DNA of 64,000 nucleotides from a virus. Where the stretch lies: IMG/VR virus record IMGVR_UViG_3300020171_000001, positions 64,001 to 128,000 of that record; one strand, 5' to 3'. Each line of letters opens with the position of its first letter. The stretch's first letter is position 1. Of this stretch, positions 2,998 through 30,185 are shown piece by piece. Position numbers and translations under genes: made by a program. The notes beneath the pieces were generated by a model. That model searched no databases and had not been told where the DNA came from. It worked only from the letters and a program-made list of their open reading frames with translations.

Positions 2998-3000
2998 GGG

Positions 3001-3485: not shown

Positions 3486-3495
3486 GGCTCAATCC

Positions 3496-4743: not shown

Positions 4744-4752
4744 GCTGTTCTC

Positions 4753-5138
4753 CTAGACCCGGATGGCGATTAGCACGGTGAGCGAACCGATCCCTGCAGC
4801 CGGGGTGTAGACCACGCGGAGATACGAAGCCGCAGTGGCCACATCATCAGCGATGTGGCCGAAAATGCTGCCAGCCGCGACGGCCTGGCTTCCCTTGGTC
4901 TCCCAGTGCGAACCGTCCAGGGAGAACCGTCCAGGGAGACCTCCCAGGTGACATCCCCCTGGTGCGTCGGGACGGCGGGCGGGTCAGGGGCGACGGCCAC
5001 GGAGAAAAACTGGAAGCAGAGGCGGCGAACTGGCTGACCGGCTTCATCTGGGTTTCCCAGGATAACCGTCGGGGACGTGATGATACCGGACATGTCGCCG
5101 GAGTCGACGAGTGTTCTTTGGCCAGGCGTGGGGGGCAT
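4753..5138 (-). pseudogene. beta-sandwich virion-type protein frameshifted by a 14-bp tandem duplication
   Basis: AACCGTCCAGGGAG is duplicated at 4911-4924/4925-4938. Removing one copy restores WEVSLDGSHWETKG...SYLRVVYTPAAGIGSLTVLIAIRV*, ending at 4753 next to the RBS of the fibre gene. Confidence 0.75.
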
Positions 5139-5187: not shown

Positions 5188-5640
5188 TTACAAACGGACC
5201 TCGCGTGCGCGCCGGAGCAAGGACAGGACCGGAGGACTCGAGTCGACGGGGAGCAGGGGATGAACTGCCGCGTTCAGGGCACTGTCATCTGCCAGACGGG
5301 CCAGAGCATCACCGTGGCAGGCCCGCGGAGCACACCAGCATCCAAGGACCTTTCCGCGAAGACCTGATAGCGTTGCCATGATGCGCGGCTGCGTCACAAC
5401 CCATTGAGCATAGCGTTGGATGGCCTCAGCCCGTGTTCGCACGCGGTACTGCGCCAGGGTTCCAGGGCAATGGGAAAACGGATTGCCGTACAGCGAAGGC
5501 CGGCCTATGTACACATCGTAGGCTTCGTGCCGGCAATTGACCACGCGGGTCGACGGCTGCGTGCCCTGCGAGTACTCCATGCAGTCAACGGGCATGACTG
5601 CGGAATCGCGCGACGGGCCAGGGCCCTGAGCAGAGCACAA
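5188..5640 (-). CDS. DUF4326 domain protein
   Basis: RVVNC..YDVYIGRPSLYGNPF ... LRGKVLGCWCAPRACHGDAL signature; the true start may be downstream. Confidence 0.85.
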   Translation of the reverse strand: MCSAQGPGPSRDSAVMPVDCMEYSQGTQPSTRVVNCRHEAYDVYIGRPSLYGNPFSHCPGTLAQYRVRTRAEAIQRYAQWVVTQPRIMATLSGLRGKVLGCWCAPRACHGDALARLADDSALNAAVHPLLPVDSSPPVLSLLRRAREVRL

Positions 5641-6161: not shown

Positions 6162-6479
6162 TCAGCCCAGAGTCACCGTGAGCAGTGTAGCTAGTCCAAC
6201 AGCGATGGGCAACGCGGCGAGCGTGGTCCACTCGTCGGTCCGTAGGGTATTCGAGCCATCGATGAATACCGTGGTCGTGGCCAGCTCCCAACGTACCCGA
6301 GTGAAGGTGAGCTTCTGGTCCTGGAAGTTGACCGGGGTCGGGCCGACGACCAGGGTCCCGTTGGCCTGCCGGGTGACGATCTGGAAGGAGAAGGTCCCGT
6401 GGGCCGCTGCGACCTGCTTGGACGCGCTGGTCTGATCCGCTGCCATGGACACGCTGTTCAGGAAGCAAAAGGCTGGCAT
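6162..6479 (-). CDS. hypothetical protein
   Basis: 105 aa, GGAGGA RBS, extended -10 (TGcTACACT) upstream. Confidence 0.7.
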   Translation of the reverse strand: MPAFCFLNSVSMAADQTSASKQVAAAHGTFSFQIVTRQANGTLVVGPTPVNFQDQKLTFTRVRWELATTTVFIDGSNTLRTDEWTTLAALPIAVGLATLLTVTLG

Positions 6480-6540: not shown

Positions 6541-7461
6541 TCAAGCAGCTTGAGCCATGATTTCCTGGAACCACCGGGTGGACCAGAGAGGCTCGCCATC
6601 CGGGCGCCATGCCTGCGGGATGAAGAGGCCCTTCTTGGTCTGCTCCTCCACGATCATGTCCGGGACACCAAGTTCCCGGGCCACGACGCGCAGGGGCGCT
6701 TTGCAGTACTCAGATGTGACTCGCTCGTCGGGGAACAGACGACCGGCTGCCTCGCGCACCATCGGGTGCCCGAAGGGGAAACGTACCTCGGCGCCGAAGG
6801 CCTGGAGGCACGCGGTCTCGTTGACCAGGAGCGGGGGCAGGCCATGATGGAGGTCCACTAGCCGGGCCATCTCCACGGCAGACGTTACGTTGGCTGCGTG
6901 TTTGTCGATCAGCTCGTAGGCCTCTGCGGTGGGGACCGTGCGAGCGATCATTCGGGCCGCTGCGTCCCGCGGGCCGTCAATGCCCAGCACGTGCCGGATG
7001 ATCCCTTTGTAGGCCACGAGGCGGTAGTCCGCGAAGATCTTGTCGAGGTAGTGCAGCACGCGGTAGCGTGTGTAGCCACCGAACAGCTCGTCGGCGCACT
7101 CACCGGTGAGCAGGACTTCGATGCCGTCAGCCTGCGCTCGCCGAGCCGCGAACCACTGGCACACCTGGGACCACGAACCGGTCCCATGGGTGAGCCGGTA
7201 GACTTCTGGAAGCGCGTCAAGCATCTCCTCGCGGGAGAAGGTCACTTCGGTGACCGGAAAGCCACGGGCGGCCAGCCGAGCCGCTGTGATGTTGTCCTGC
7301 TCGGGCCAGGTCACGCAGTAGAGGTGGTCAAGTCGGGCGATAGCCTGGATGATGGCCGAGTCGAGGCCACCCGAGAGCAGTAGGCCAGTGCCACTCGGGC
7401 CCTGCGGCGCGATAGACTCTTGCACTGCGGTGGCCAACGCCTTCGAGATGCTTTGGTGCAT
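6541..7461 (-). CDS. asparagine synthetase-like ATP-dependent amide ligase (synthetase domain only)
   Basis: LLLSGGLDS PP-loop, TGECADELFGGY, EVRFPF, KAPLR, KKG. No N-terminal Cys glutaminase domain. Start set at the ATG with GAGGAGG RBS. Confidence 0.85.
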   Translation of the reverse strand: MHQSISKALATAVQESIAPQGPSGTGLLLSGGLDSAIIQAIARLDHLYCVTWPEQDNITAARLAARGFPVTEVTFSREEMLDALPEVYRLTHGTGSWSQVCQWFAARRAQADGIEVLLTGECADELFGGYTRYRVLHYLDKIFADYRLVAYKGIIRHVLGIDGPRDAAARMIARTVPTAEAYELIDKHAANVTSAVEMARLVDLHHGLPPLLVNETACLQAFGAEVRFPFGHPMVREAAGRLFPDERVTSEYCKAPLRVVARELGVPDMIVEEQTKKGLFIPQAWRPDGEPLWSTRWFQEIMAQAA

Positions 7462-7495
7462 TCTGCCTGCCTCCTCTACGCACCGATCTGTGCGC

Positions 7496-8041
7496 CTACG
7501 GATTTGCGTTTTCGTGAGGGTAGCTATGGCCATGGCGCGGGTCTCGACCGAGAAACCCTGTGAGGTCCCCAAGCTTGTCCTTGGCGTCAAGCGGTAGGAC
7601 AAGAAGTTTGTCCTTGCCTGCTCTTCTGAAGCAGCGGCGGACGCAGTCCTCGTGCTGGTCGAAGATGTCCCCGAACTGCCCACGGTGGAACCGCCGGGTG
7701 CCGAAAGTGCTCATGTTGCTGAGGTGCGTGTCAGGGTCATCGCTGGCCACCCGGTGCGCCTCCCACCACCGCTCGCAGGAGTCCAGCCAAGTCTCGCGCT
7801 GGCGGGTCGTGAGAATGAATTGGCTCTTGGGGTAGACGCGATCGAGATGCCGGTAGTAGCGAGTGCCGAAGTGGACCAGAGCATCCCAGGTATCAGGTTG
7901 CCAAGTGAAGTTCGCCTCTTCCAAGACCTGCTTGTAGAAGCCGAAGGGGTTGTGGATCACCCGGAGGTCGAAGCTCTCCAGTGCTTTGGCCAAGCTCACT
8001 GTTCCCGTCTTGGGCAGGCCGATGCCGAAGATCTTGCTCAT
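7496..8041 (-). CDS. sulfotransferase family protein
   Basis: KIFGIGLPKTGTVSLAKAL PAPS-binding loop; YPKSQFILTTR..WLDS. Confidence 0.85.
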   Translation of the reverse strand: MSKIFGIGLPKTGTVSLAKALESFDLRVIHNPFGFYKQVLEEANFTWQPDTWDALVHFGTRYYRHLDRVYPKSQFILTTRQRETWLDSCERWWEAHRVASDDPDTHLSNMSTFGTRRFHRGQFGDIFDQHEDCVRRCFRRAGKDKLLVLPLDAKDKLGDLTGFLGRDPRHGHSYPHENANP

Positions 8042-8580
8042 GCTTGTGGCCGCCACGCCTCAAGGTTGAGGCTCATCAACCTCCCGTCGGCCTTTCGCAG
8101 GTGGGGAAGATACGCCTGGGAGAAGTCATCCACGTGCGCATGCTCAGTCCTGCGCCAGTCGTAGCGCTGGATGCGCACGAAGCCCGCGGCTGAGAGGGCC
8201 ATGGTGAGCCACGCTTCATCGAAGGCGCAGTGGTGGAAGTTCAGTGGGTGGTCCTGCCCCCCGTAGAGTAGGCCGTGGAGTCCTTCAAGGCTCTTAGTCT
8301 CCTGGTACCAAGCGCAGATCGCAGAGAAGTCCGGGACGGCGAGTCGGAGGACCCCACCAGGTGAGAGAACACTGCGCCAGTCCCCGAGCACGCGGGGAAT
8401 AGCCTCGCGGTGAAAATGCTCCAGGATATGCGACGCGTAGACTGCTTCTGCGACTCCTGCACCAAACGCTTCGACGAGGTGGGCCGCAGAGACGATGTGG
8501 TCGATGTGCGCGTGCGGCATCAGGTCGACGTGGACCCAGCCCGCGATGTACCGTGGTCCGCAGCCGATGTGGAGTTTCAC
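8038..8580 (-). CDS. class I SAM-dependent methyltransferase
   Basis: KLHIGCG..IAGWVHVD, YASHILEHF, LSPGGVLRLAVPD. Confidence 0.9.
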   Translation of the reverse strand: MKLHIGCGPRYIAGWVHVDLMPHAHIDHIVSAAHLVEAFGAGVAEAVYASHILEHFHREAIPRVLGDWRSVLSPGGVLRLAVPDFSAICAWYQETKSLEGLHGLLYGGQDHPLNFHHCAFDEAWLTMALSAAGFVRIQRYDWRRTEHAHVDDFSQAYLPHLRKADGRLMSLNLEAWRPQA

Positions 8581-9365
8581 GTCGGTACCTCGCAGACCAC
8601 GTTGACGCTCCGTTTGGACAAGTCGTCCTCTGCAATGATGGCCTCGAGGTCCACAGGAGAAAAGGTCTCCTCACGTACGAATCTGTAGCCCATGTCCTGC
8701 AGCAAGAGCAGCATCTCCCGCGTCTTCGTTCCGTAGGTGTAGTTGCTATCGCGAGCAAGCCCTGCAGACTCACGGAGGGTATAGTCGCAGACCTCGAGGA
8801 GCAGGACCGGGCGGAGCCGGGCCAGGGTCCTTCGTGCTCCGAAGATGAAGTCCAACTCGCTGCCATCGAGGTCCACTTTGGCGAAGTCCAGGCGGTCCAT
8901 CTGCAGATCGTCCAGTGCCACCGTTGCTATCTGCGCAGAGGGTTGCTCGCAGCGCGTGGGCGGCCAGGAGTAGTTGAAGAAGGTTTCCTGTGGCCCCTGT
9001 GCCCTCCGCCCAAGAGCTTTGCAGTGGACCACGGTGTTTTCGATGTCGTTTAGTCTGCAGTGCTCCCCGATCAGGGCAGCCGGCTCGGGCATGGCTTCGA
9101 AAGAGGCCACGTGGCCCCCCGGCCCCACCAAATACGCCAGAAGCACTGTGTAGTAGCCCATGTTGGCGCCGGCGTCCAGTACGTGCATGCCTGGGCGGAC
9201 AAGGCTCTCGACGGCCCACGTGGAATAGGGCTCCCAGATGTGGCTTCGGAGGACAGAGCCATCGATGAGCTGTTCGGGGTCGAGTAGCCAATGGAAAGCC
9301 GGAGTGTCTCCCCGCTTCAAGGCTATGGGCGCGTCATACGGCTCTTTCAAACTACGGTAGGTCAT
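8577..9365 (-). CDS. FkbM-family methyltransferase
   Basis: WEP, VLDAGANMGYYT, VASFEA, LDDL..DFAKVDLDGSE. Confidence 0.9.
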   Translation of the reverse strand: MTYRSLKEPYDAPIALKRGDTPAFHWLLDPEQLIDGSVLRSHIWEPYSTWAVESLVRPGMHVLDAGANMGYYTVLLAYLVGPGGHVASFEAMPEPAALIGEHCRLNDIENTVVHCKALGRRAQGPQETFFNYSWPPTRCEQPSAQIATVALDDLQMDRLDFAKVDLDGSELDFIFGARRTLARLRPVLLLEVCDYTLRESAGLARDSNYTYGTKTREMLLLLQDMGYRFVREETFSPVDLEAIIAEDDLSKRSVNVVCEVPT

Positions 9366-10228
9366 GGCCAAGTTCTCCCAACCAAGGACATTGCTTCGTG
9401 CACACATGGATCTCCGTAGCAAATCTCCACGTAGCGCTGGATAGGGTTTGCCACATTGGGGTCGACGCGGACCCCGCGGATTCCTGGTAGCCCATCAACG
9501 TCATTGCCAGACCACGGGTTCCTGTCAACGGTGCCTGCCAAGATCGCATTGCGCAGTGTATGCACATTCCCGCCGATGTGGTGCTGCCGTTTTTCTCCGT
9601 AGTCCTCTGCTGGAACCGTCAGGATCTTCGTGGTCTCTGAGCTCTTCAAGCCCATAATACGCGGCATGGCATGGCTTGCGTCGGTAGCCAAATCCTCATA
9701 GGCCAGCACATGGTCAGGCGCTGATGCGGAGAGAGCTATGACGTTGGCGGCCCAGTTTGCAGCCCACAGTGCTACGTCGCTGTCTGCTGCGTTCTCACCG
9801 ACGAGAGACCGTGCGTAGGCCCAGGGGGGCTTGTGGACCAGAACCCGGATGTGCTGCTCATCCGGGTTGCAAGTCTGCATGATGCTTGTGTACCCCGGGT
9901 TCTTGCTGGTATCAATGAGCCAGCCCGTGACCCCGAAAAGTTTGCGTACCTGTTGGTAGTGGTCGCGCAAAGTCAGACTGGAGTGCTCCTTGATGAACGG
10001 GCACATGCCGCCGCAAGACCTGCAATATGCCCGGTAGATGCCCGAGGCATAGCGCTGGCGACGAAGGGCGATGAACAAATCGTGGTCGTTTGCACTCATG
10101 TTGAGGACACAGTAGTGGATCCACTCCCCCAGCATGGTCCATCCGGGCTGCGCACCAGCGATTAAGCCGAGGAGCGTGGAGCCGGATCGGCCCATACCCA
10201 CGACGTGGAGGACGCCAGTGCCCGTCAT
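9362..10228 (-). CDS. sulfotransferase family protein
   Basis: VVGMGRSGSTLL PAPS-binding loop, LGE, IDTSK, YEDLA, HHIGGN. Confidence 0.8.
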   Translation of the reverse strand: MTGTGVLHVVGMGRSGSTLLGLIAGAQPGWTMLGEWIHYCVLNMSANDHDLFIALRRQRYASGIYRAYCRSCGGMCPFIKEHSSLTLRDHYQQVRKLFGVTGWLIDTSKNPGYTSIMQTCNPDEQHIRVLVHKPPWAYARSLVGENAADSDVALWAANWAANVIALSASAPDHVLAYEDLATDASHAMPRIMGLKSSETTKILTVPAEDYGEKRQHHIGGNVHTLRNAILAGTVDRNPWSGNDVDGLPGIRGVRVDPNVANPIQRYVEICYGDPCVHEAMSLVGRTWP

Positions 10229-11418
10229 TGCTGAAACTCATTCGGTGCCAAACGCTGGAGGTACCGGCCATAGCAGTGCCGAATGGCCTCTCGGTAGCTG
10301 TTCTTGGCTACGACAGTATCGGTATGCTCTTTGGCTGCCAGGGCCATCCGAGACAGGAACTCTCCGTCCTCCCGTGGGGCCTTCAGCACCTGGAAGAAGT
10401 TCGCAATGGAGCCATCGAACCCAATGTAGTGCGTTCCATTACGGTAGCCGAATTCAGTGAGTTCTCCGTGCCTATCATGGAGAACCTGGACCACGCCTGT
10501 TTCGAACAAGTCGAACAATCTACCGTTGAAGAACGACGAGATCGGGAAGTTTACGCCGAATCGCGATCTGGCGTAATAAGGCGCCACGACGTACCCGTTC
10601 CGGTTGACGTCGTTTCGCGGTAGAAGTTCTCCATCGCGCATGCCAGAGCCACAGAGAAGACTGCGGTGCCCGGTTTCTCCCGCGCGGTGGTTCAACTCGG
10701 TCAGGAACGCACGGCGTTCCGGGTTCATGTCCCCGCGGCAGCCGACGAAGATTAAATCGATGTCGACTGCGCCCCGGCGCAGATCCTCTGCTTTTTGCTG
10801 TACGGTGAATCCTGTGTCCTTGCACCATGCCTGGAGTTGATCGGATGTCCCCCCAATGTGCATACGACAGTAGGGTAGACCGAGAGCCTGGTACTTCTCT
10901 GCAGTTCGCACGCCGGTAGCATAGTCCCAGGTAAGCATTCGATAAACCAGCGCATCGAAATACTTTGCCACAGGGAATGTCTTGATCTCCGATGACCCCG
11001 GGCAGTCATCTCCGAACTCCAGGATGCAGACCTTGAACCTGCCCGAGATCCGCTCCATGACCTCTGGGAAGCACTGATAGGCGTGCTGCCAACGCAGGAT
11101 CTCGTGGTCCCCCGAGAGTCGAAGGAGATCAGAGACCAGTTGGTTTACAACGGCAGGGGCCGGCCTGCGCGTGTTGTCAACCATCCCCGGAGCCATCCCC
11201 TGGGGGAGTTCTAGTACTCCTGCGCGGACATAGGGCAGATACTGAGGGTACGTGGTGGTGTCCACGACGAGGTCTACCCCTTCGTCGGCGAAGCGGTACG
11301 GGTTTCCCCCCCGCCGCTCCTGGATGATCTTGGAGAAATCCGTGTCGTCGGTGTCCGGCCACTTCTGCCAGCTCCGTTGATCGGTGATCAGGACTTCCTT
11401 GACCCCAACAGTTGTCAT
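10225..11418 (-). CDS. glycosyltransferase (GT-B, CgeB/Glyco_trans_1_2-like)
   Basis: DLIFVG..RRAFL..YYARSRFGVNF..NGRLFD...G C-terminal domain pattern. Confidence 0.75.
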   Translation of the reverse strand: MTTVGVKEVLITDQRSWQKWPDTDDTDFSKIIQERRGGNPYRFADEGVDLVVDTTTYPQYLPYVRAGVLELPQGMAPGMVDNTRRPAPAVVNQLVSDLLRLSGDHEILRWQHAYQCFPEVMERISGRFKVCILEFGDDCPGSSEIKTFPVAKYFDALVYRMLTWDYATGVRTAEKYQALGLPYCRMHIGGTSDQLQAWCKDTGFTVQQKAEDLRRGAVDIDLIFVGCRGDMNPERRAFLTELNHRAGETGHRSLLCGSGMRDGELLPRNDVNRNGYVVAPYYARSRFGVNFPISSFFNGRLFDLFETGVVQVLHDRHGELTEFGYRNGTHYIGFDGSIANFFQVLKAPREDGEFLSRMALAAKEHTDTVVAKNSYREAIRHCYGRYLQRLAPNEFQQ

Positions 11419-13127
11419 CTCCGGAAGCCCCAGATCGTGGCCACGGAGAGTTCTGGGACGGGGACCTGCGACGCTTCGTAACCCAATAAGCGTATGCCGT
11501 CCACCAGCGCGGCTTGCTCTTCGGCCCCAGGCCGATGAATCCACCAGCGCTCTACGTCGATAACTGCGTCCCGTCCGTTGAGGGCCAAACGGAGCTTGTC
11601 TGCCTCTGGGACTTCCCACGTTCGCCAGTGCTCATTTATGACGTTTGTGGCGACAAGCATGTCGTAATCCGGTCCGGAGTACCCATCGGGGAACGTCGAA
11701 CAAAGCACCTCGAGATTGCACGCGACCCTCGGGTGCATTCGGGCCATCCAGGCCTGAATATACCGAGCTCCACGGGCCCGCTCGGGGTCAATGTCCACGG
11801 CAACCGCGGGGAACCCGAGGGCAGCCAAGGCCAGAGCTAACTGCGCGTGCCCAGCGCCAACTTCGAGAACTCGCTGAGGCCGTGGGCCTTGGCGGGCCAA
11901 CCATCGGACGATTCCACGGTCATTTGCATCGAGGATTGAGCCCGAGTCCATCTTGTACTTGTAGTACCCGTCGATGGCCAGCCGGCCCGGATTCTCTGCG
12001 AACCAGCTCCGGTGTGCTTCCAAGAGACCAGCGTCGAAGGCATCGAGGTCAGGATCACTGGAGTCAGGGCCACCAGGGCCAACGTCATTGCCCCTAACGC
12101 AGGCTCTGCGTGGGCCACCGGCTGAACTGGATTTGGAGTCGGTTTGCATAGGTTTGCTCTCAAGGATACTTGTAACGTCTGCGAAGCAGACAGGGATCTC
12201 CTCACGCGCGCAAGCCGCGGTCAAACCATCCATGGCCCGGGCTACACGGGGATTGGCAACTGGGGTCCACGTGTCAGCGATGCTTCTCCAGTACACGTCC
12301 CAGAGTGAGTGCGCGTGAGTCTTGATATAGAGTGTGCCGCCGATGACAGGGGACTCCTCAAGCCAGGACACTACGGCGTCAGCCGGCGCCGTGTCTCCGT
12401 GGGCAACAGCGTCCAGGGATACTCGGGAAAACGGCGTGGGGCTGTTCCAGATCAGGAATCGCCCTTCGGCTGCCAGCTGAGATGCGCTCGGGATACGCAA
12501 CAACGCGGTTCGGGGCTTGGCCCCGTCTGCGGCATACCCTTTGGGCGCGGAGAAGGGGACCACGGTATGCGGCGCAGGAATCGTTGGGGCGCAATGCCTG
12601 CGGCCGGGCGGAAAGGAAAAGTCTGCTATCACTCCGTGGCGATGGAGAACAGCGATTTCGTCCACGATGTCGCAGATCGCCGGGTCAGAGGCATTGAGGG
12701 ACCAGCAGCCATGGACGAAGGCTGCGTATTGCGGCAGGTGTAGATCTGCGCGCTGGGCCACGAGGTACCCAAGGAGACTGGACAGTCGGTTGGAGTTGGC
12801 CTCTGGATCGTGGGGCCAGCACTCATGATGAATATGGATTTGCTGGTCTACGCCCGCGCCGACGAGGGCCTTCTGGATCTCCAGGTCAGACGCCATCCTC
12901 GCAGGATTCTCACGGACTCCCAGGTCCCTCTCGTCCCCGAGGATAAAGGACTGCGAGCTGAAGAACACGGAGATGGCTCGAGACCAGGAGCATTGCTTCA
13001 GCAATTCGAGCCACCGCCGGACGTGCCCCACAGACATGAAGGAGCCAGAACCATCTGTCTGGTAAGGCTCAAAGTGGTCGCAATGCGCTAGCACGACGCG
13101 CTGGACGCCACGTTGGGCCAGAGTCAT
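11415..13127 (-). CDS. DHFEP/HxHH putative metallo-hydrolase (deacetylase-like) domain fused to a SAM methyltransferase
   Basis: N-terminal CDHFEP, QIHIHH, FVHGCWSL, ADFSFP, IKTHAH; C-terminal RVLEVGAGHA..AVDID. Confidence 0.65.
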   Translation of the reverse strand: MTLAQRGVQRVVLAHCDHFEPYQTDGSGSFMSVGHVRRWLELLKQCSWSRAISVFFSSQSFILGDERDLGVRENPARMASDLEIQKALVGAGVDQQIHIHHECWPHDPEANSNRLSSLLGYLVAQRADLHLPQYAAFVHGCWSLNASDPAICDIVDEIAVLHRHGVIADFSFPPGRRHCAPTIPAPHTVVPFSAPKGYAADGAKPRTALLRIPSASQLAAEGRFLIWNSPTPFSRVSLDAVAHGDTAPADAVVSWLEESPVIGGTLYIKTHAHSLWDVYWRSIADTWTPVANPRVARAMDGLTAACAREEIPVCFADVTSILESKPMQTDSKSSSAGGPRRACVRGNDVGPGGPDSSDPDLDAFDAGLLEAHRSWFAENPGRLAIDGYYKYKMDSGSILDANDRGIVRWLARQGPRPQRVLEVGAGHAQLALALAALGFPAVAVDIDPERARGARYIQAWMARMHPRVACNLEVLCSTFPDGYSGPDYDMLVATNVINEHWRTWEVPEADKLRLALNGRDAVIDVERWWIHRPGAEEQAALVDGIRLLGYEASQVPVPELSVATIWGFRR

Positions 13128-13735
13128 GGCTTCGTCCCCCAGGGCCACACGCGCACCTCGGGCGTTGCAAGCCCGTGGAAGGTTGCCTTGCTCTCCCCAT
13201 GGGTGTAAAAGCCGTCTTTCCCGACGCCGTTTGTCCCTCGCCACCAGTGGCCGTCTCGGACTATGACGGCTGGGTCGAGAAGAATATCGTCATAGCCCAA
13301 AAGGCGACCGTCGGCTCCCCGGTAGACCGACTGGTGCTCCTTTTCGACATCTAGTAGGAATGGCCGGGCCACGAGGTCCTGGGGCCCTACTACCTCGACG
13401 ACGCTGTGTCCGCTAGTGCCGTCAGAGTGGAGCAGCTCGATCCCCCGGCATTCCACGCGGAAGATATGATATGCAAGAAAGGCAAAGAGAAGGCACTGCT
13501 GCTCGCACCAGCCTGCGCGCTGTTCCAGGATCTCTCGAGGGCAAAGGCTTCCGGGGTGACTCAGGGGGTGAGCGATCTCGGTGCCGACCCAGACCATGAG
13601 ACGAAGTAGCCGCTCTTCTAGGCTCCCGTTCCCCGCCGAGGTCCGAGCCATGGCAATCTGCAGTCGGATTCGTCGATCCGGCTGCACCTCGGCATGGTTG
13701 GCCCAGCGATTCCAGTCGCCGATCGACGCAGGCAT
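13124..13735 (-). CDS. transglutaminase-like protein
   Basis: AGWCEQQC (Cys), GHSVVEV (His), FLLD (Asp) triad. Confidence 0.75.
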   Translation of the reverse strand: MPASIGDWNRWANHAEVQPDRRIRLQIAMARTSAGNGSLEERLLRLMVWVGTEIAHPLSHPGSLCPREILEQRAGWCEQQCLLFAFLAYHIFRVECRGIELLHSDGTSGHSVVEVVGPQDLVARPFLLDVEKEHQSVYRGADGRLLGYDDILLDPAVIVRDGHWWRGTNGVGKDGFYTHGESKATFHGLATPEVRVWPWGTKP

Positions 13736-13742
13736 TTGGGTG

Positions 13743-14528
13743 TTATCCCCTCTTGAACCCGGAGACGGAAACTGGGAATCCGCCTACCCACGTAGCAACG
13801 AATCCGCTGGCAGTGAACCAACCGGTGACCTCTTCGACGGTATGCCAGAACCGATATCTCGGTGTCAGCCAGTCAAAGAAGTCGCTGATGCACTGCTCAT
13901 CATTCGGATTGTAGGACGGCCGCAGGACCTCTTCCAGGGGCCCCCACGCGGGATGGCACAGGTCGCGGATCTGCACGGCGTATTCACGGCAGATGCCATA
14001 GAGGACCTCGGGGGGAACGGCCCTGGTCACCTCATGCATGAAGTCCACGAGGATCTGATGCTTTGGATCTGCCGTGGGCCGGGTGTAGACCCAGATAGCC
14101 ATTTGGCCCCCCGGCTTGACGGTCCGGGCCACATTGGCGAAGGACTGCGCCGGGTCTGCCGTGTGGTGGAGGACCCCGATGGACATGGCCATGTCGACGG
14201 ACGCATCGGGGAGGAATCCGGGTATCGTCAGGTCCGCCTGGATCAGCTCCGCCTGCGGCGCGTTTTCACGAGCCGCTGCGAGCCCGTCGGGGGACACGTC
14301 CACACCGATGGCCTTGCCTCCGTGGTCAGTGATGAACCGGCAGTATCGGCCGATCCCGCAGCCTGCGTCCAGGACGACCTTGCCCGCCAAGTCTTCAAGC
14401 CGCCAACCGGTCTTCTCCATGAACTGCTTCGCGGTGGTCGGCTGGGGCTCCGGGTGCCGTCTCCAGCGCTGGTCGAAGCCCTTGTCTGATTCGGGGGGTG
14501 ACGACGACGACGACGATGACCGGGTCAT
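13743..14528 (-). CDS. class I SAM-dependent methyltransferase
   Basis: VLDAGCGIGRY, GVDVS, SIGVLHHT, VKPGG. Confidence 0.9.
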   Translation of the reverse strand: MTRSSSSSSSPPESDKGFDQRWRRHPEPQPTTAKQFMEKTGWRLEDLAGKVVLDAGCGIGRYCRFITDHGGKAIGVDVSPDGLAAARENAPQAELIQADLTIPGFLPDASVDMAMSIGVLHHTADPAQSFANVARTVKPGGQMAIWVYTRPTADPKHQILVDFMHEVTRAVPPEVLYGICREYAVQIRDLCHPAWGPLEEVLRPSYNPNDEQCISDFFDWLTPRYRFWHTVEEVTGWFTASGFVATWVGGFPVSVSGFKRG

Positions 14529-15454
14529 GCTGGCTCCTTGGGCTTGGGCTGGCTCAGATACGGGCCGGCGGGGGCAAGGGCGAAGGTGTTGAGTAGCCAT
14601 GTCAGGAGGACTGCTTGTTGATGCGGGCCGGCGCGGCCGAACCGCAGGGTCTTGACGGCATCGTTGGGCACGGCTGGCACTTCATCAGGAGCCAAGAGCA
14701 GCGTCTCGGAGACATCCTGTACAAGGGCCGCAGCAGCTGGGAGCGGGGCAAGCCCCTCTACCAGTCTCTGGAAGTACGTGGTCCACTCCTCCGCAGTGCG
14801 ACTGAGCCTCGCGAGGTCGCGTGGGAGTCGTGGTGATACCCGGGGAAAGTCTTGAATAGCTGCCCACTGGTCGTCGGTGCACTCGGCACCGCGAAGCAGC
14901 ACGCCGTAGGTGGCCAAAGCATCCCCGAGGTTCGGTATGCGGAACGGCGGTTCCTCCTCCCTGTTCTTCCCGCAAGTCCAGAGGACCGCTTCGTAGGGCT
15001 CGATGAGGGCTGCCAACTCCTCCGGAGTGTACTCGCGGACGTGGAAGGGATTCTGGCACTTCCAGGTATTCCAGTTCGGCGTGGAAAGAAATACAAACCG
15101 TCGTGCCACGCGATGGAGTTGGGACAGGAACTCGGTATCCTCTTCGACGTGCTCGAGGACATCCATGGCCGTGACCGCGTCAAACGACCGATCCCGGAAG
15201 TCCTCGATCGGGAGGTCCAGGACGTGCATACGATCCACGGGCGCCGGGTCAGTCCCCACCACGCGCGTGGTTTCACCGGAACGGAGGAGCGCCAGGCCTC
15301 TCCCGTCCCCAGCGCCAACGTCCAGCACGGACAGATCCTTTGCGAGGTACGATGCCAGGAGGTACCAGTGGTCTTGCCCGCCGGTGGCGTTGCTGGCACG
15401 CTGGGCCGGCGGGAGCTTCTCCAATCGCTGGGGTTCAGTTACATTGCGCGGCAC
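14525..15454 (-). CDS. class I SAM methyltransferase with a degenerate transglutaminase-like C-terminal segment
   Basis: VLDVGAGDG, FDAVTAMDVLEHV, STPN, NPFHVREYT; start uncertain (GTG 15454 or TTG 15481). Confidence 0.8.
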   Translation of the reverse strand: MPRNVTEPQRLEKLPPAQRASNATGGQDHWYLLASYLAKDLSVLDVGAGDGRGLALLRSGETTRVVGTDPAPVDRMHVLDLPIEDFRDRSFDAVTAMDVLEHVEEDTEFLSQLHRVARRFVFLSTPNWNTWKCQNPFHVREYTPEELAALIEPYEAVLWTCGKNREEEPPFRIPNLGDALATYGVLLRGAECTDDQWAAIQDFPRVSPRLPRDLARLSRTAEEWTTYFQRLVEGLAPLPAAAALVQDVSETLLLAPDEVPAVPNDAVKTLRFGRAGPHQQAVLLTWLLNTFALAPAGPYLSQPKPKEPA

Positions 15455-17571
15455 AAGAATTCCTCGTAGCGCTGGGACCAAACTGACCAGCTCCAGCGCG
15501 CTTCGATCTCTGCCCGGTTGATGCGGCCCATCTCGGCTACACGGAGCGGATCAGCACGGAGCATGCAGATGGCTTGCGCCAGGGCATCCCTGGTGCGTTC
15601 CACGATCACGATCCCTGTGTCTCCAAACTCCTGGATCTGCGAGCGCTGCATCTCCCGGTGGTTTCCGCAGTCCGTGGTGATTAGCGCATGACCCGAGGCC
15701 ATCCCCTCCATCACGGAATTACTCGCCCCTTCGTATTTGGACATGCAAAGGCACAGGTTGGCCTTCAAGTAGAACACGGGCATCTCGGCCGGGGATAGCC
15801 TGGCTGTGTGGTACTCGGCAAAGACCAGGGGCTGCTTCAGACCCTCGCAGACCGGCTTGATGATGGTGTCGAACCCCTTGACGTCTCCGCAGGCCCCAGA
15901 TGCGTGCTGGGCGTTGCCGTTCCAGGAACAGATGACCTCGCCGGACACAGGGGTCGGCTCGGGGAATCGGTTCATGTTTACAGGATTCGTGAGGTACACC
16001 GCATTGGGGCAGTGGTCGCGCAGCTCGTCGTAGTTTTGCTTCGTGACGACATGAAATGCCCGAAAGCGATTCACGAGCGCGATGTCTTCGGCCGTTGGCG
16101 GCCCCGGCTTTTCAGGCTTGAACCAGAGCGCACGGAGGCTGCCGACGGTGCGGTCCCACGGGAGCATCGCGTCGATGCCCCAGCGGTGGTAGACGCAGAA
16201 CACCGTGTTGAACCGCAACATGGCTGCGCGAATGCGCTCGTCCACTTCATGCGCAGGCAGCGCCTGGCGACCCTGCGCCTCAATCCGTGCGTTGCACCAG
16301 TCGATCACGAACCAGTGTGCAAACCCGCGCTTGCTTCCGAGGTAGAGTTCGAGGTCCTTCATGTTCTGGTGGAAGGCCCAATCTCTCACATCGGAGAGGA
16401 GCAATACGTCGCCGTCCTCGGCCATCTGCTCTACCCCGAGTGCCCGGGCCTGCGCCTCTGCGGGCCCACAGTGCCCCCGTGGGGAAACTAGCCGCGGTTC
16501 GCCCGCGGGCTCGGACCCAGGCCCGGGCGCGGGCGCGAGTGCGGGCGCCGCGACAGGCTGAGCCATGGGCTGCAGGACTTCTGGTGAAACCGGCCGCGTC
16601 GTAGCTAACCCCTGGGGGACACTCTGGCCTTGGATCGCGAGAGCCGCCAGGAGGCACCGGCGCCAGTTCTCCAGGGTGACGTCCCATGCCCAGCGTTGCT
16701 CGACCTCGGCGCGGGCGCCACGGGCCATGTTCGTTCGCGCGTCCGGGGCCATGCGCTTAACGGCTTCAATGGCCTCAACCAGGGCCCCGGTCGTGCGCTC
16801 GCGGAGGAGGAATCCGTTGACCTGGTCACGGATCATTCGCTGAGCGATGCCAACGCGCGTGGAGATGGGGATGCGTTGCGACGCCATGCCCTCGAGGATA
16901 GGGTTCGGCGTTCCTTCACGGACGGACATGCAGGTGATGCACGTGATCGCGTGGTAGAACGGTGGCATCTCGTGGAGCGAGCGTGAATTGCCCTTGGCGG
17001 CGTCAAGGACGTGGAGTTCGACATGCGCCTGCTGGCAAGCTTCGCGTACGAGCCCCAGCCCCTTGTAGTCTGTAATGCCCTTGTCTTGCCCCATACGAGC
17101 GCTGTTCCCGCACCAGCCAATGACCGGAGGCCCAGGAGGCAGCCGGGATGGCATGAAGAGCCGCGTGTTGACGCCGTCTGGGACGAGGAAGATGGGCGGG
17201 AGTTTGGCCCCCGCGGACCGCTGCTGGATGTCTTGCCGGATCTCCTCATTGCACACGGCAAGGATGTCCGTTTGCCGCAGTGCCAGGAGGAATTCAGGGG
17301 ACAGGTTGGCCGGCCCGGAGCAAAAACTCTCGTGGTCGTAGACACAAGTAATGAGCGTACCCGGGCGCAGGTTGGCCCGGAGCCGACAAGTATCCCCCCA
17401 CCAGAAGCAGACCAGTACCGAGGAGCCTGAAACCGGGGATAGGAGTTTGCTGCTTTGCTCGATGACAACCGTGGAAAACAGATTGCCAAGGCCTCGGGCG
17501 ATTTCACGGGAGATGTTGTGGAAGGCCCATCCGGGCTGGTCGATGCTGAGTACAAGGGTCTGCGAGGCCAT
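15439..17571 (-). CDS. double-domain glycosyltransferase (two GT4-like GT-B domains)
   Basis: Two repeats of WAFH...GWCGN/SWNGN..KG...MPxFY...S..EG..N..xEGMAS...WxW separated by a Pro/Ala linker. Confidence 0.9.
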   Translation of the reverse strand: MASQTLVLSIDQPGWAFHNISREIARGLGNLFSTVVIEQSSKLLSPVSGSSVLVCFWWGDTCRLRANLRPGTLITCVYDHESFCSGPANLSPEFLLALRQTDILAVCNEEIRQDIQQRSAGAKLPPIFLVPDGVNTRLFMPSRLPPGPPVIGWCGNSARMGQDKGITDYKGLGLVREACQQAHVELHVLDAAKGNSRSLHEMPPFYHAITCITCMSVREGTPNPILEGMASQRIPISTRVGIAQRMIRDQVNGFLLRERTTGALVEAIEAVKRMAPDARTNMARGARAEVEQRWAWDVTLENWRRCLLAALAIQGQSVPQGLATTRPVSPEVLQPMAQPVAAPALAPAPGPGSEPAGEPRLVSPRGHCGPAEAQARALGVEQMAEDGDVLLLSDVRDWAFHQNMKDLELYLGSKRGFAHWFVIDWCNARIEAQGRQALPAHEVDERIRAAMLRFNTVFCVYHRWGIDAMLPWDRTVGSLRALWFKPEKPGPPTAEDIALVNRFRAFHVVTKQNYDELRDHCPNAVYLTNPVNMNRFPEPTPVSGEVICSWNGNAQHASGACGDVKGFDTIIKPVCEGLKQPLVFAEYHTARLSPAEMPVFYLKANLCLCMSKYEGASNSVMEGMASGHALITTDCGNHREMQRSQIQEFGDTGIVIVERTRDALAQAICMLRADPLRVAEMGRINRAEIEARWSWSVWSQRYEEFLCRAM

Positions 17572-17696
17572 GCGCCCTTCCTTGTCCATCGCTAGTGGGC
17601 CTCTTGCCTGCCTATAGGCGGCAGCCGGTCGCGTGGCTTTTGAACTTGCTGCAGTGGCCAGCCAAGAGGCTGCGTGGGGGCCGGGGCAGAGCGGGC

Positions 17697-18050
17697 CTAC
17701 ACCACGCTGAAGTTGCCCACGGCGTGGGCGCCACCGCCGCTGTTGTAGGTGACCACGTGGTAGGATCCGTCGTGCTGATCCTGAATCCGGTACTGGTCCA
17801 GCGTGGGCGGGTTGGTACCGTCTGCCGAGATGCCGGCTCCGGTGCCACCCGCGTAGAGGGTTCCGGAGCCGCCCGCGACGACGAGTGCATCGAGGGTTCC
17901 CGCGTTCCAGCGCGTGATGACCGTGTTGATCCCGGTGATCACAGTGTTCAACGCGCTGACCAGCGAGCCGGTCAGACGCCCGTCGAAGACTTTTGCGCCG
18001 CTCTTGAACGCGGTTACGGCTACGGAGCTGATCGGGGTGATAGCAGCCAT
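17697..18050 (-). CDS. Ser/Thr/Gly-rich hypothetical protein (short fibre-like)
   Basis: AAGGAG RBS, TAGACA-N17-GATACT promoter-like site, high-GC3 codon usage. Confidence 0.7.
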   Translation of the reverse strand: MAAITPISSVAVTAFKSGAKVFDGRLTGSLVSALNTVITGINTVITRWNAGTLDALVVAGGSGTLYAGGTGAGISADGTNPPTLDQYRIQDQHDGSYHVVTYNSGGGAHAVGNFSVV

Positions 18051-18164
18051 GGGGTTACTCCTTGGGATTGGAGACTACGCGGAGTATCGCTGTGCTCTCG
18101 CGTGCTGTCTAGGTTACGAGTTCGCGGGCAGGGCCCATTCCATACCCATGCGCCCAGACTACAG

Positions 18165-18530
18165 CTACTCCAAGTTCATGTCAAAAGTCATATCGGAGTC
18201 GCCCCCAGGCAAGCGCAAATGCAGGAATCCCTGGGAGTCCATGAAGGTCTGCAACCGGTAGAATTTCTGGATCACGGCTGACAACACGCGTGTAGCGGGC
18301 ACACCGGAGACCTGACCTGTTGCAATTTGTATGATTTCGTGGAGTTTGGCCTTGCTAACGGCACTCAGGTCTACGGACGTGGAGCCCTTGGGGCGTTTGC
18401 GTGGGCCCCGCCTTTGCTTTTTCTTCTTCAGCCCTAATGACTCCGAAGCTTTCGAAGCTTTCGAAGCTTTCGAAGCTTTCGAAGCCTTTGGGGCCCTTGC
18501 AACCTTGGTGGTCTTCGGTGGTTTTTCCAT
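18165..18530 (-). CDS. basic putative ribbon-helix-helix DNA-binding protein with a (KAS)n tail
   Basis: KASKASKASKAS, KKKKQRRGPRKRPK, then TSVDLS-helix-helix. Confidence 0.5.
   Translation of the reverse strand: MEKPPKTTKVARAPKASKASKASKASKASESLGLKKKKQRRGPRKRPKGSTSVDLSAVSKAKLHEIIQIATGQVSGVPATRVLSAVIQKFYRLQTFMDSQGFLHLRLPGGDSDMTFDMNLE
18444..18486. repeat. 9-bp tandem repeat (CGAAGCTTT)x4+
   Basis: Directly visible; encodes the KAS repeats. Confidence 0.95.
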
Positions 18531-18693
18531 TAGCTGATAGACTACCTACCGTATAGCATGTGGCATGTCAACGTGTATTTGGGGGCGGCAGGGATCCCCC
18601 AGAAAATCAACGGGAGGCATCATAGGTGCTTGCCATGGTGCAAACCGCCGGGTATCCTGGGGGCCAACATCTGGAGTAGTACCGGAGCGGCCT

Positions 18694-20586
18694 ATGGACG
18701 ACATGCATACCACGACGCAGGGCGATCAATCGCAAGCTGCGGCCACTGGCGGAACTGACGTAGAAGCCGGTGGAGCTTTCGTCAAGATACAGAGCTTGGG
18801 CACGGAGTCTTCGGAGAGCGCCCGGGTAGGCGAGCTGTTTGTCACATCAGGTGGAGGCCCCCCGGCGCTTGCTCCGCGGGAGTCCGATAACGATGCTGAC
18901 ACGCTGGTTCGGAACTCTTGGTCCGTGCTCAGCATCGTGACAGCGCTCCTCGACAACGTGTATGGGGCGCCGGTGGATGTGGAGCCTGTGGTGGACCCGG
19001 CCAGCGAAGAGGGTAAGCGAACCATCCGGCGTTGGATCCGGCTCCAACGGGCCATGCGGGGAACCTCGGATCGGACTCATCTGGAGATTTCTCAGGCCTC
19101 GTTGGACCAGGCCTGCGGGTGGCTCGATGCCCGGATCGAATACGAGCTGGCTCGCGCCGAGGGCTTCTACGATACGTGCGGGGTAGACCACGATCTGCAG
19201 ACCACACGTATTCTTCTCGGATTCGACCTCGAGACCCGCGGGCGCGCGCACCTGGAGGTTCTGCGGGGCATGGACGGCACTCCGCGGGCCATTCAGTGGG
19301 TCTCCTCCCGGTTCATCCGGATTGAGCCCAAGAAAGACATCGTGGGGTTCCACGACGTGGATGTCCACAACCCCCTCGTTCAGATCGAAGAAGTACGGTA
19401 CCGCCGGTTTCACGGGTTCTATCAGGTGACGGCCGCGCCAGGGTCCGGCGTGTGGTCATACTTCCGTGAGTTTGGCGACCCGCGTATCCGGAGCCGGCGC
19501 TCGGGCCAGCGGGGCTTCGCGACCCTGGAAGACCTCCAAAGGGCCGAAACCGGACCGGGGGGCGCGGGGTCCGGGGCCCACTACGCGCAGGCAGGTTGGC
19601 CCCCGGGGACCCCCGCCACGGAGATTTTGCACTTTGCCCTCTCCGCGCCCTGGGCAGAATCTACTGGACTGGCCCCCTGGTACGCGGCCAAGCCCGAAGC
19701 TCTGGGTATCCGCGAGCTCGCGCAGGAGAACCGTGGGCTGTTGTCCGGCCAGTTGATTCCGCTGCTGCTCATGATGGTCTCCGGCGGCGCTCGTATCGGG
19801 CCCGATCAGCAGGAGTACTGGCAGCGGCAGTTCCAGTCGATTCGGCCTGGGGAACGCGGGCTATTGATCATGCAAGTTCTCGGTGACCGGCTGGTCGGCT
19901 CAGGGGCTCGCAGCGGTGGCGAGCCCAAGATCCAAATCGAGAACACCCGTCCGGCGCAGCAGGACGATGCCTTGGGCCTGAAGTACACCAAGGAGGCCGA
20001 TCGGGCTGTTCGCCGGCTCTACCGGTTCCCTGCGCCGGCACTGGGAGACTTGGAGGGTGTGAACGAGAACACAGCGGACTTGGCCTTGCGGTTCGCCGAG
20101 AGCCAGATCTACGAGCCCCGAAGGGACGCATTCAACCGGCCCTTCGACCAGATTCTGCGGGAGATGGGGCTGGTCGCCGTTCGCACGCGCACACGACCGC
20201 GTATACCCATGCACCTGGGAGAGATCGCTGAAGCCTTCCAGCGTCTGAGCGAGGCCTCCTTGGTCACACCGGAAGACGTTCGACCGTTCCTCCGCCGCCT
20301 GGTCCCCGGTTTGGACCACCTGGGAGACCGGTATTGGGCCAAGCTCCCCCGACGGGTGACCGAGGCCTACATGATGGCACGAGCGCCGCAAGCCGTGGCC
20401 AATTTCCTCGAGCTCGACGACGCACATGCACCGGCGCCGGAAGCATCTGAGCAGATGCGCTCGGCGGACCTCCAAGACGCGGCTGATGTGCTCGCCGGGT
20501 ACGCCCCGGCAACGGCCCCGACCATGGATTCTGAGAATTCTGAGAATTCTGAGAGTTCTGGGACTACGGAGAAGCTCAATGACTGA
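18694..20586 (+). CDS. phage portal protein (PBSX-like)
   Basis: DLETRGRAHLEVLRGMDG, YFREFGDPR, ATEILHF, GLAPW; first gene of the head module. Confidence 0.85.
   Translation: MDDMHTTTQGDQSQAAATGGTDVEAGGAFVKIQSLGTESSESARVGELFVTSGGGPPALAPRESDNDADTLVRNSWSVLSIVTALLDNVYGAPVDVEPVVDPASEEGKRTIRRWIRLQRAMRGTSDRTHLEISQASLDQACGWLDARIEYELARAEGFYDTCGVDHDLQTTRILLGFDLETRGRAHLEVLRGMDGTPRAIQWVSSRFIRIEPKKDIVGFHDVDVHNPLVQIEEVRYRRFHGFYQVTAAPGSGVWSYFREFGDPRIRSRRSGQRGFATLEDLQRAETGPGGAGSGAHYAQAGWPPGTPATEILHFALSAPWAESTGLAPWYAAKPEALGIRELAQENRGLLSGQLIPLLLMMVSGGARIGPDQQEYWQRQFQSIRPGERGLLIMQVLGDRLVGSGARSGGEPKIQIENTRPAQQDDALGLKYTKEADRAVRRLYRFPAPALGDLEGVNENTADLALRFAESQIYEPRRDAFNRPFDQILREMGLVAVRTRTRPRIPMHLGEIAEAFQRLSEASLVTPEDVRPFLRRLVPGLDHLGDRYWAKLPRRVTEAYMMARAPQAVANFLELDDAHAPAPEASEQMRSADLQDAADVLAGYAPATAPTMDSENSENSESSGTTEKLND
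20528..20560. repeat. 9-bp tandem repeat (ATTCTGAGA)x3
   Basis: Directly visible; encodes SENSENSES. Confidence 0.9.
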
Positions 20587-21121
20587 TGATTGGATGGCTC
20601 GTAGAGACCGGCAGGGCCTTGCTATCTTGGGGTCGGTGGCAGGCCAACGCAAAGCTCTACAGGGCCGTGAAGAACACCTGATGCTCGCCCGCGTCGTCAC
20701 GAACGTGTCTATCCCACCTGCCGTGGGAGAGACCCTTGCGTGCAACCCGCGATTCGCTCAGCCGTTCTTCGTGGGCATCGGGCGTACACTGCACCGGGCG
20801 ATGACAGACCCTCGTACGCGTCCGCTGGTGTGGTCCGACGCGGCGGTAAAAGAGCGCCTGGACGTGATCTATGACCTGGTGACCCGGCTCCATGGCGATG
20901 GAAACATCTCCATCCTGGCGACCATGGATCGCCTTTGGGGCGCTGTACTTGCTCGACTGCAGCGTGCGCAGCACCCGGATGACGCTGCTGAGGAGCAGAT
21001 CGCGGGTTCTGCCATGGAGCCCAGTACAGACGGACTCACGGGCAATAGCTGGGCTTGCGCCGAGTCAAAGCCCGGCACCGTGCGAATGAACCCGGGGACT
21101 GAAGACTTCCGGGAGGAGTAA
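20579..21121 (+). CDS. hypothetical protein
   Basis: The ATG overlaps the portal end; operonic. Confidence 0.65.
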   Translation: MTDDWMARRDRQGLAILGSVAGQRKALQGREEHLMLARVVTNVSIPPAVGETLACNPRFAQPFFVGIGRTLHRAMTDPRTRPLVWSDAAVKERLDVIYDLVTRLHGDGNISILATMDRLWGAVLARLQRAQHPDDAAEEQIAGSAMEPSTDGLTGNSWACAESKPGTVRMNPGTEDFREE

Positions 21122-21127
21122 GCGCCG

Positions 21128-30184: not shown

Positions 30185-30185
30185 G

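Follow-up and report, generated by a model that had tools for sequence, protein, structure and literature searches.

A stretch of 64,000 nucleotides from a virus (hereafter the window), which covers bases 64001-128000 of the 157,287-bp IMG/VR record IMGVR_UViG_3300020171_000001, carries an operon of predicted glycan-building and glycan-tailoring enzymes beside the phage head genes. In window numbering, used here for all operon positions, 11 enzyme genes follow each other on the minus strand from 6541 to 17571, and seven of their junctions are 4-nt ATGA or GTGA overlaps. An earlier note on this DNA had counted ten genes, mostly coupled stop to start; the coupling stands and the count rises to 11. 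Family profiles, motifs and structure models recognise every domain named in that note, in the minus-strand genes described below. As it had also said, the block faces away from the head genes, being placed back to back with those for the portal, the protease and the capsid (18565-25323). The operon extends beyond its earlier bounds, with two small genes (Gm1 and G00) preceding the first glycosyltransferase gene on the same strand and a 105-amino-acid open reading frame (ORF) following the last enzyme.

The operon belongs to the phage. The record has direct terminal repeats and a completeness rating of 100%, and a search of the genome for a tyrosine integrase (Phage_integrase) gave no match; this is a complete, non-integrating, lytic genome of 157 kb. 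The guanine-cytosine (GC) content of the operon genes is uniform, from 0.58 to 0.65 against 0.63 for the genome, which together with the complete genome, its terminal repeats and the lack of an integrase match makes the glycan block native. Paralogues of the operon genes were not found elsewhere in the genome. An origin as a host island or chimera is ruled out by the uniform GC content, the complete genome with terminal repeats and the syntenic phage relatives. The earlier note had allowed that the closest homologues might prove to be chromosomal O-antigen or exopolysaccharide (EPS) loci; they are phage-borne, those of G01, G06, G04 and G00 being found on uncultured phage contigs in the same position at the head module.

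The first enzyme gene (G01, 15439-17571) encodes a double GT4-type glycosyltransferase of 710 amino acids with two GT-B units. Two stretches each match Glyco_trans_1_4 (E 8e-23) and Glycos_transf_1 (E 4e-18), with scores of 81.6 and 65.8 bits against Pfam cut-offs of 27 and 26.4, and both halves were recovered in a six-frame search. Two EX7E motifs are present, E219GTPNPILE227 and E614GASNSVME622, and 9 homologues keep every one of the four glutamates. The double GT4-like enzyme of the earlier note is thereby confirmed, and both halves are predicted to be retaining GT4-type GT-B enzymes. About a dozen homologues, all metagenomic, make up this family in the databases. One of them, from a related phage (P0018, 1082 amino acids), has an intein with a LAGLIDADG homing-endonuclease domain in its second glycosyltransferase unit; the phage genes in which inteins are found tend to be conserved and important ones.

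A further glycosyltransferase (G06, 10225-11418) belongs to a small unnamed GT-B-like family of 82 representatives among 1.84 billion. Members of the family match Glyco_trans_1_2 and the family profile matches POGLUT1/2 at E 1e-3, so that a GT-B-like enzyme remains of what had been called a CgeB-like glycosyltransferase; the copy of this phage has no Pfam match itself. Relatives of this enzyme are fused to a carbamoyltransferase, a GT1 enzyme or a methyltransferase.

The combination of a barrel named after its DHFEP motif with a class I methyltransferase, in the N- and C-terminal halves of one protein (G05, 11415-13127), defines a second unnamed family. There is no Pfam model for the N-terminal domain, which was approached through a 12-sequence alignment, an AlphaFold2 model (predicted local distance difference test, pLDDT, 88; predicted template modelling score, pTM, 0.87) and structure comparison by Foldseek and VIA-align. 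The model matches 3lm3 (Z 14.3), the peptidoglycan deacetylase HP0310 (14.2), two polysaccharide deacetylases (13.5), the N-deacetylase domain of human NDST1 (12.6) and ArnD (12.4), with GH57 enzymes interleaved and 220-258 residues aligned, and thus predicts a distorted beta/alpha barrel of the glycoside-hydrolase/deacetylase (CE4/NDST/ArnD) superfold. Together with this barrel, the invariant His/Asp/Glu-rich motifs HxDHFEP, HxHHE, VHGxW and KTHAHS, predicted to form a metal site, bear out the metallo-domain of the earlier note. The domain is most likely a de-N-acetylase as judged from the model; the fold is shared with GH57 and GH38, so a hydrolase activity would also be possible. In NDST and in the NodB, NodS and NodH set, a CE4-superfold de-N-acetylase is likewise coupled to N-methylation or sulfation. 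Here, however, the motifs differ from the canonical TFDD and H-S/T-x-x-H of CE4, the fusion partner is a methyltransferase and not a sulfotransferase, and the DHFEP activity is a prediction.

The same fusion occurs in 55 bacterial loci (L057-L111), mostly from Alphaproteobacteria (Reyranella, Caulobacterales, Hyphomicrobiaceae, Niveispirillum, Sphingomonas). In Reyranella, Hyphomicrobiaceae, Caulobacterales and other members of the class, 2-4 paralogues often stand together within 20 kb. Among viral contigs, a scan for close relatives of G05 returned nothing. A deacetylase-like gene is paired with a sulfotransferase in three settings: in this phage, in another phage (L024) where a sulfotransferase follows the DHFEP gene, and in Prochlorococcus (L067), where the DHFEP gene stands beside an epimerase of the short-chain dehydrogenase/reductase (SDR) family, an arylsulfotransferase-like gene, a Sulfotransfer_3 gene and an ABC ATPase. 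On another aspect, the taxonomic skew of the fusion and the GC content of 63% hint that the host may be an alphaproteobacterium.

The earlier note had recognised five methyltransferase domains, one of them FkbM, and all five are present. Besides the C-terminal half of the DHFEP fusion (11415-13127), there are two class I S-adenosylmethionine (SAM) methyltransferases whose genes share an ATGA overlap: one is MetW/Methyltransf_23-like with a C-terminal extension of about 150 amino acids (G02, 14525-15454), the other of Methyltransf_11/25 type (G03, 13743-14528; E 5e-21). The FkbM-family enzyme (G08, 8577-9365) matches TIGR01444 at E 2e-17, and a compact class I enzyme of 180 amino acids (G09, 8038-8580) is 50% identical to its homologue in L005/L009. 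The genes for G02 and G03 are among the most widely conserved of the tailoring genes, the former being kept in L005, L031-L033, L037, L038, L042 and L043.

Two sulfotransferases had also been proposed, and the evidence for them is unequal. The Sulfotransfer_4-family enzyme with its PKTGT loop (G10, 7496-8041) is well supported by its profile (E 2e-17, 64 bits against a cut-off of 22.8) and by a full-length match to the sulfotransferase 9kf1 of the PDB (E 7e-6); a homologue in L039 is 42% identical. The Sulfotransfer_3-like P-loop protein with a Cys-rich insert (G07, 9362-10228) reaches 19.6 bits, below the Pfam cut-off of 27, has no PDB match, and is identified by its motifs and relatives only, the GRSGST loop and the YEDL motif being common to it and to relatives that pass the cut-off.

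Two enzymes remain. The transglutaminase-core (papain-like) Cys-His-Asp protein (G04, 13124-13735) has only a weak Pfam match (E 0.089), and the earlier assignment is backed by an ESM Atlas feature score of 0.96, TM-scores of 0.65-0.71 to Transglut_core clusters and the invariant residues C77, H110 and D129. Its homologues follow the glycosyltransferase gene in L036-L040, directly or after the two methyltransferase genes. The last enzyme (G11, 6541-7533) is the asparagine-synthetase-like ligase announced by the earlier note, an adenylating PP-loop enzyme by its Asn_synthase match (E 2e-37) and its SGGLDS loop; its start lies at 7533 or, more likely, at 7461, which is preceded by a GAGGAGG ribosome-binding site. 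The PP-loop domain is the one found in amidotransferases of the AsnB/WbpS type, and in glycan pathways WbpS converts a uronic acid into a uronamide. Unlike these, the copies of this phage, of L043 and of L039 are without the N-terminal Ntn glutaminase (GATase) domain and its Cys1. Full-length GATase_7 plus Asn_synthase forms beginning with MCG occur in L005, L006, L031 and L042; they have the catalytic cysteine and are predicted to be true glutamine amidotransferases. The nitrogen donor of the short form could therefore be free ammonia, another amine or a separate glutaminase. A transglutaminase-like gene accompanies the short form in this phage and L039 and is absent beside the long form in L005/L009, L006, L031 and L042, with L043 as an exception. 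We keep as an idea, suggested by this distribution, that the transglutaminase-like protein stands in as the glutaminase.

In pattern scans, 27 viral and 24 metagenome loci were recovered, with about 20 distinct contigs whose glycosyltransferase is at least 35% identical. They are uncultured phages from metagenomes, including the Hainich groundwater set; a scan of viral contigs with the portal protein gave one 4-kb contig only. Wherever the flanks are long enough, the cluster is tied to the head module, the portal being only 27-30% identical in distant relatives. Three arrangements allow this linkage. The cluster diverges from the portal gene, as in this phage, in L002, L005/L009, L008, L031, L033, L030 and L041, and lies upstream of it on the same strand in L015 and L027. 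In L006 it is inserted on the same strand inside the late block, between the capsid homologue and homologues of the genes at 27729-28871, 28878-29402 and 30186-31193.

The glycosyltransferase, the two adjacent methyltransferases (G02 and G03) and, in several loci, the asparagine-synthetase-like gene recur, and none of the loci has all of these. The second glycosyltransferase G06, the FkbM enzyme, the compact methyltransferase G09, the transglutaminase-like gene and the sulfotransferases (L005, L039, L024) vary. Some relatives have genes that this phage lacks, such as an SDR sugar epimerase/dehydratase in L006, a DegT-type aminotransferase in L043, a hexapeptide acyltransferase in L033 and extra glycosyltransferases. 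The statement of the earlier note that nucleotide-sugar synthesis genes are lacking holds for this phage and not for the relatives, in which the epimerase, aminotransferase and acyltransferase genes stand in the cluster. The epimerase, aminotransferase, acyltransferase and amidotransferase genes of the relatives indicate that the chemistry of the cluster is carbohydrate chemistry, and a tailoring set that differs between relatives fits diversifying pressure on an exposed surface structure.

The glycan could be destined for the host instead of the virion. The operon would then remodel an envelope glycan (lipopolysaccharide O-chain, capsule, EPS or glycolipid) or make a free Nod-factor-like oligosaccharide, acting on lipid-linked or soluble acceptors at the cytoplasmic face, and would block superinfection or change the receptor or the cell surface. 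For both halves of the double glycosyltransferase, the highest-scoring GT4 models are of the EPS and PEP-CTERM types, but the scores stay far below the cut-offs of these models. The peripheral GT4 enzymes PimA, WaaG and PglA need no transmembrane segment, and PglA, PimB' and TarM are among the PDB matches of the double enzyme. The bacterial DHFEP-methyltransferase homologues are chromosomal, including the Prochlorococcus copy with its epimerase, sulfotransferase-type and ABC ATPase neighbours, and the deacetylase, N-methyltransferase and sulfotransferase, with the carbamoyltransferase fusion of relatives, mirror NodB, NodS, NodH and NodU in the functions known for these families. On the other side, no machinery for a lipid carrier was seen, as neither an initiating phosphoglycosyltransferase nor a flippase, a polymerase or an ABC exporter was found in the operon, and the complete genome contains neither a GT2 enzyme nor an SDR epimerase. 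No integrase was found, which makes lysogenic conversion unlikely. The closest homologues of five genes are phage-borne, and the cluster remains tied to head genes even in the late block of L006, an unusual place for a function in host takeover. We regard this reading, with a host acceptor or a free oligosaccharide, as unlikely.

The gene that opens the conserved part of the operon, G00 (17697-18050, minus strand), encodes a protein of 117 amino acids, recorded as a gene of that length in a public protein collection (P0125). The earlier note had taken a plus-strand ORF at 17595-18281, between the glycosyltransferase and portal genes, as a gene. It is an antisense artefact: in a tblastx comparison with the closest relative, L030, the minus frame is the better conserved, with 62% identity over 136 amino acids against 50% for the plus frame. 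The G00 gene has a GC content at third codon positions (GC3) of 0.83 and the strongest ribosome-binding site of the operon, an AAGGAG Shine-Dalgarno sequence. Its product combines an N-terminal MAIxxLSTL, a central helix LNTxIAKxNExI and a C-terminal block VG..G.YY.G..W..DGTNPPT..R.QDQ..G.Y. The gene lies upstream of the glycosyltransferase gene in ten relatives (L030, L031, L008, L033, L041, L032, L002, L005, L009 and L034, where the contig cuts the gene start), and it heads the operon in those where the cluster diverges from the portal gene. The gap to the glycosyltransferase gene is about 50-90 bp in most of them but about 150 bp in L030; L010 and L007 give weak matches. Between this phage and L002 it is about as conserved as the capsid protein (42% against 42%). 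A large protein collection holds only 8 members of the family, a scan of viral contigs gave only contigs already known, and the nearest ESM Atlas entries, viral small proteins with scores below 0.9, are leads only.

Modelled in three copies, G00 gave ipSAE interface scores of 0.51, 0.87 and 0.34, with a median of 0.51, while three controls scored 0.00. In the calibration, which was on two copies and not three, 20 of 30 homo-oligomers of solved structure attained that mark, as did 1 of 23 monomers. At least 15% of contacts are common to the runs, the partner pLDDT ranges from 45 to 90, and the partner's own fold carries a flag of uncertainty in one run. The copies touch along the helix and through their C-terminal strands. 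These models support a coiled-coil trimer with an intertwined C-terminal knob, which is the usual build of phage fibres and of some decoration proteins. We propose G00 as a candidate head or neck fibre or decoration protein and as the preferred candidate for the glycan acceptor.

A small conserved gene followed by modifying enzymes is also the layout of clusters for ribosomally synthesised and post-translationally modified peptides (RiPPs). The enzymes might modify G00 in the manner of a RiPP or a glycocin, yielding an effector for release or injection instead of a virion coat. One or two radical-SAM/SPASM enzymes are indeed added in the clusters of L006 (11191-13260), L031 (9971-11002) and L039 (6268-7617 and 8265-9452), and in the protein P0023 a glycosyltransferase is fused to such a unit. 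The pair of asparagine-synthetase-like and transglutaminase-like enzymes recalls the C and B proteins of lasso peptides, and a weak resemblance (E 1e-5) links G02 to MftM, the mycofactocin oligosaccharide methyltransferase. However, the full-length asparagine-synthetase homologues begin with the MCG that provides the catalytic cysteine of glutamine amidotransferases, which lasso cyclases are not known to have, and the two genes of the pair co-occur inconsistently. Pfam scans of the operon proteins detected no PqqD/RRE domain, G00, the product of the only small conserved gene, has 117 amino acids and is modelled as a folded trimer, and the sugar-nucleotide enzymes of the relatives point to a substantial glycan and not to a peptide scaffold. 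A modified effector is, in our view, distinctly improbable. A lasso-peptide cluster proper is ruled out by the four MCG-bearing homologues, the missing N-terminal domain of G11 and the lack of a PqqD match.

The earlier note had named hypermodified DNA as the alternative to virion proteins, with the glycosyltransferases and tailoring enzymes placing decorated sugars on phage bases to evade restriction. Phage GT-B enzymes often glycosylate DNA (bioRxiv 10.1101/2023.12.21.572611). As in the known sugar hypermodification systems (the alpha- and beta-glucosyltransferases of T4, the MT-5mYOX-GT clusters), GT-B enzymes with cellular relatives are sometimes found near structural genes, and a C5 methyltransferase is present here. 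About 6 kb downstream of the operon and on the same strand, genome positions 63087-64511 (window 1-511 and upstream; L054:910-2334) hold a 475-amino-acid ORF that matches part of the C5 cytosine DNA methyltransferase domain (DNA_methylase, 60 bits, profile positions 64-181 of 324), a 39% identical homologue of which lies about 7 kb from the glycosyltransferase in L016. Such pathways are usually clustered with ThyS or 5mYOX (same preprint), yet six-frame searches of the complete genome found no ThyA-like hydroxymethylase, Tet_JBP or 2OG-FeII_Oxy_2 or _3 gene, the Tet_JBP search being weak and without a positive control. No enzyme forming hydroxymethyl-pyrimidines was thus detected, unlike in the known systems, and the lack of a thymidylate-synthase-like or TET gene disfavours DNA modification. 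The cluster is linked to head genes and not to replication genes. Moreover, we know of no DNA glycan with sulfation, multiple methylations or amidation. The DNA alternative, weakened though it keeps its C5 methyltransferase, ranks as the least likely of those considered.

We favour a cytoplasmic pathway, native to the phage, in which a glycan is assembled and tailored for the virion, and give this reading a probability of about one half. From the enzyme families, the operon structure, the phage origin and the conserved head-gene linkage, we infer an acceptor, an order of steps, a chemistry for each step and a biological role. With nucleotide sugars of the host, the double retaining GT4 enzyme and the third GT-B-like enzyme would assemble a short oligosaccharide on a protein that the phage makes. 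The CE4/NDST-like domain would strip N-acetyl groups, the five methyltransferase domains would add N- or O-methyl groups, and the two sulfotransferases would transfer sulfate from host 3'-phosphoadenosine 5'-phosphosulfate (PAPS). The asparagine-synthetase-like enzyme would amidate or amide-ligate a carboxylate. The virion surface would in the end bear a charged, methylated coat.

A virion acceptor is favoured because the linkage to head genes survives three rearrangements, including the insertion in a late operon, because a fibre-like small protein with the strongest ribosome-binding site heads the operon, and because virus-encoded cytoplasmic glycosylation of virions has precedents. The interpretation given by the earlier note, a glycan coat on virion proteins, gains from the native phage operon, the apparently soluble enzymes and the head-gene linkage, and its virion acceptor is kept as a proposal. 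As for solubility, a Kyte-Doolittle scan agrees with the earlier observation that obvious transmembrane proteins are lacking, no transmembrane-like segment being present in any of the enzymes.

Several observations weigh against a virion coat. GT4 enzymes without transmembrane segments also act on lipid-linked and soluble acceptors, so the solubility of the enzymes is no proof of a protein acceptor. The capsid protein ends flush with those of five relatives and has no C-terminal extension of the mycobacteriophage type, and none of 27 late ORFs has a Ser/Thr-rich tail, the tail-tube gene not being among those identified. The phage has no genes for the supply of PAPS or nucleotide sugars (no APS kinase, no SDR epimerase), and activity would therefore depend on host nucleotide sugars and PAPS. 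A tblastn search with G01 and G06 against 50,697 GenBank phage records gave no match at E 1e-3. G00 itself was not found in L006, L043 and L044 although their glycosyltransferase is present, has no PHROG match and no known fold or family, and as a monomer gives a model that is poor except for the helix (pLDDT 62) and too poor for a fold search.

In the most detailed version of the virion reading, G00 would be a trimeric head or neck fibre, and as dedicated acceptor it would carry a glycan that is sulfated, methylated and amidated and has lost part of its N-acetyl groups. The result would be a 'glyco-fibre' coat on the phages of this clade, like the glycosylated fibrils of mimiviruses, with tailoring that varies between lineages and diversifies the surface, and with the transglutaminase-like protein replacing the missing glutaminase domain. 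Taken with all its parts, this version is tentative and rather doubtful.

The closest precedents are mycobacteriophages. Virus-encoded glycosylation of the virion is described for Che8, Corndog and Myrna, as cited in PMC12363180 and PMC12619734. There as here, the phage encodes soluble glycosyltransferases with genes in or beside the structural module, and a glycan shield has been proposed; the glycans described there are carried on C-terminal extensions of capsid and tail-tube proteins, whereas the capsid protein of this phage has no such extension. The tblastn search above revealed no similarity of G01 or G06 to Che8 gp110 or Corndog gp38. The present operon also differs by its 11 enzymes with predicted sulfation, de-N-acetylation and amidation and by its dedicated small first gene, and nothing points to an actinobacterial host. 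Corndog-type cassettes include an O-methyltransferase. To our knowledge, a few mycobacteriophages with simple cassettes of glycosyltransferase and O-methyltransferase are the only phages whose own enzymes are demonstrated to glycosylate the virion, and a decorated virion sugar coat involving sulfation, de-N-acetylation or amidation has been shown for no phage.

On other aspects, the operon recalls giant viruses. A 12-gene cluster of Moumouvirus australiensis, with sulfate-metabolism genes and papain-like domain proteins, decorates surface fibrils (PMC9614988). Chlorovirus PBCV-1 likewise has its own cytoplasmic machinery (A064R and A061L), in which A064R joins two glycosyltransferase domains to an O-methyltransferase and the finished glycan is methylated. 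In contrast to this phage, these viruses have eukaryotic hosts and unrelated enzymes, the first domain of A064R being of the GT-A type. Sulfation is no more than a prediction in their case too, and there is no sign of common descent. The function of phage sulfotransferases is stated to be unclear (PMC10580990), and our literature search found no paper linking them to virion glycans.

Several other features of the window deserve mention. The first ORF of the minus-strand unit, Gm1 (18165-18530), encodes a Lys-rich protein of 121 amino acids, 25 of them basic, in which KAS(K) is repeated five times in tandem; it has no Pfam or PHROG match and occurs only here and, in frame and with 46-51% identity, in L030. 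Its start is only 34 bp from the start codon of the portal gene, so the divergent promoters overlap coding sequence or one of the start codons is miscalled. At the other end, G12 (6162-6479, minus strand) is a possible 105-amino-acid protein with a C-terminal hydrophobic anchor, associated with a terminator-like hairpin at 6171-6154; it is not conserved in the fetched relatives and its membership of the operon is uncertain. Further downstream on the same strand, 5188-5640 encodes a DUF4326 protein (Pfam E 1.7e-22; phrog_464 E 9e-30). The region from about 18530 down to the window start is probably one leftward block. Within it, the 858-amino-acid product of a plus-strand ORF at 2197-4773, previously taken as a gene, is an Arg/Gly-rich antisense read-through of minus-strand genes. 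Under the two false plus-strand ORFs, artefacts of the high GC content, lie minus-strand genes at 3496-4743, 2251-2997 and 17697-18050.

On the plus strand, between the protease and capsid genes, 22504-24294 encodes a protein of 596 amino acids with a DUF6582 domain and an acidic, Pro/Ala-rich stretch that contains an (AEPI)x4 repeat. This protein probably serves as a scaffold or for decoration, and it too is conceivable as a glycan acceptor. Comparison with GenBank phages did not establish the identity of the late-block genes at 27729-31193.

The operon is among the richest phage glycan-tailoring sets found, and it is conserved at the head module across an uncultured clade. Two enzyme families without a name emerge from its study: one is the GT-B-like family of G06, and the other, widespread in Alphaproteobacteria, joins the DHFEP deacetylase-like barrel to methyltransferases. 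G00 provides a concrete and testable candidate for the acceptor. Compared with the virus-encoded virion glycosylation described so far, sulfation, de-N-acetylation, amidation, a candidate dedicated acceptor and these two enzyme families would be new. If the virion reading is true, sulfated, methylated glycan coats would be a general strategy by which phages gain charge, shielding or adhesion.

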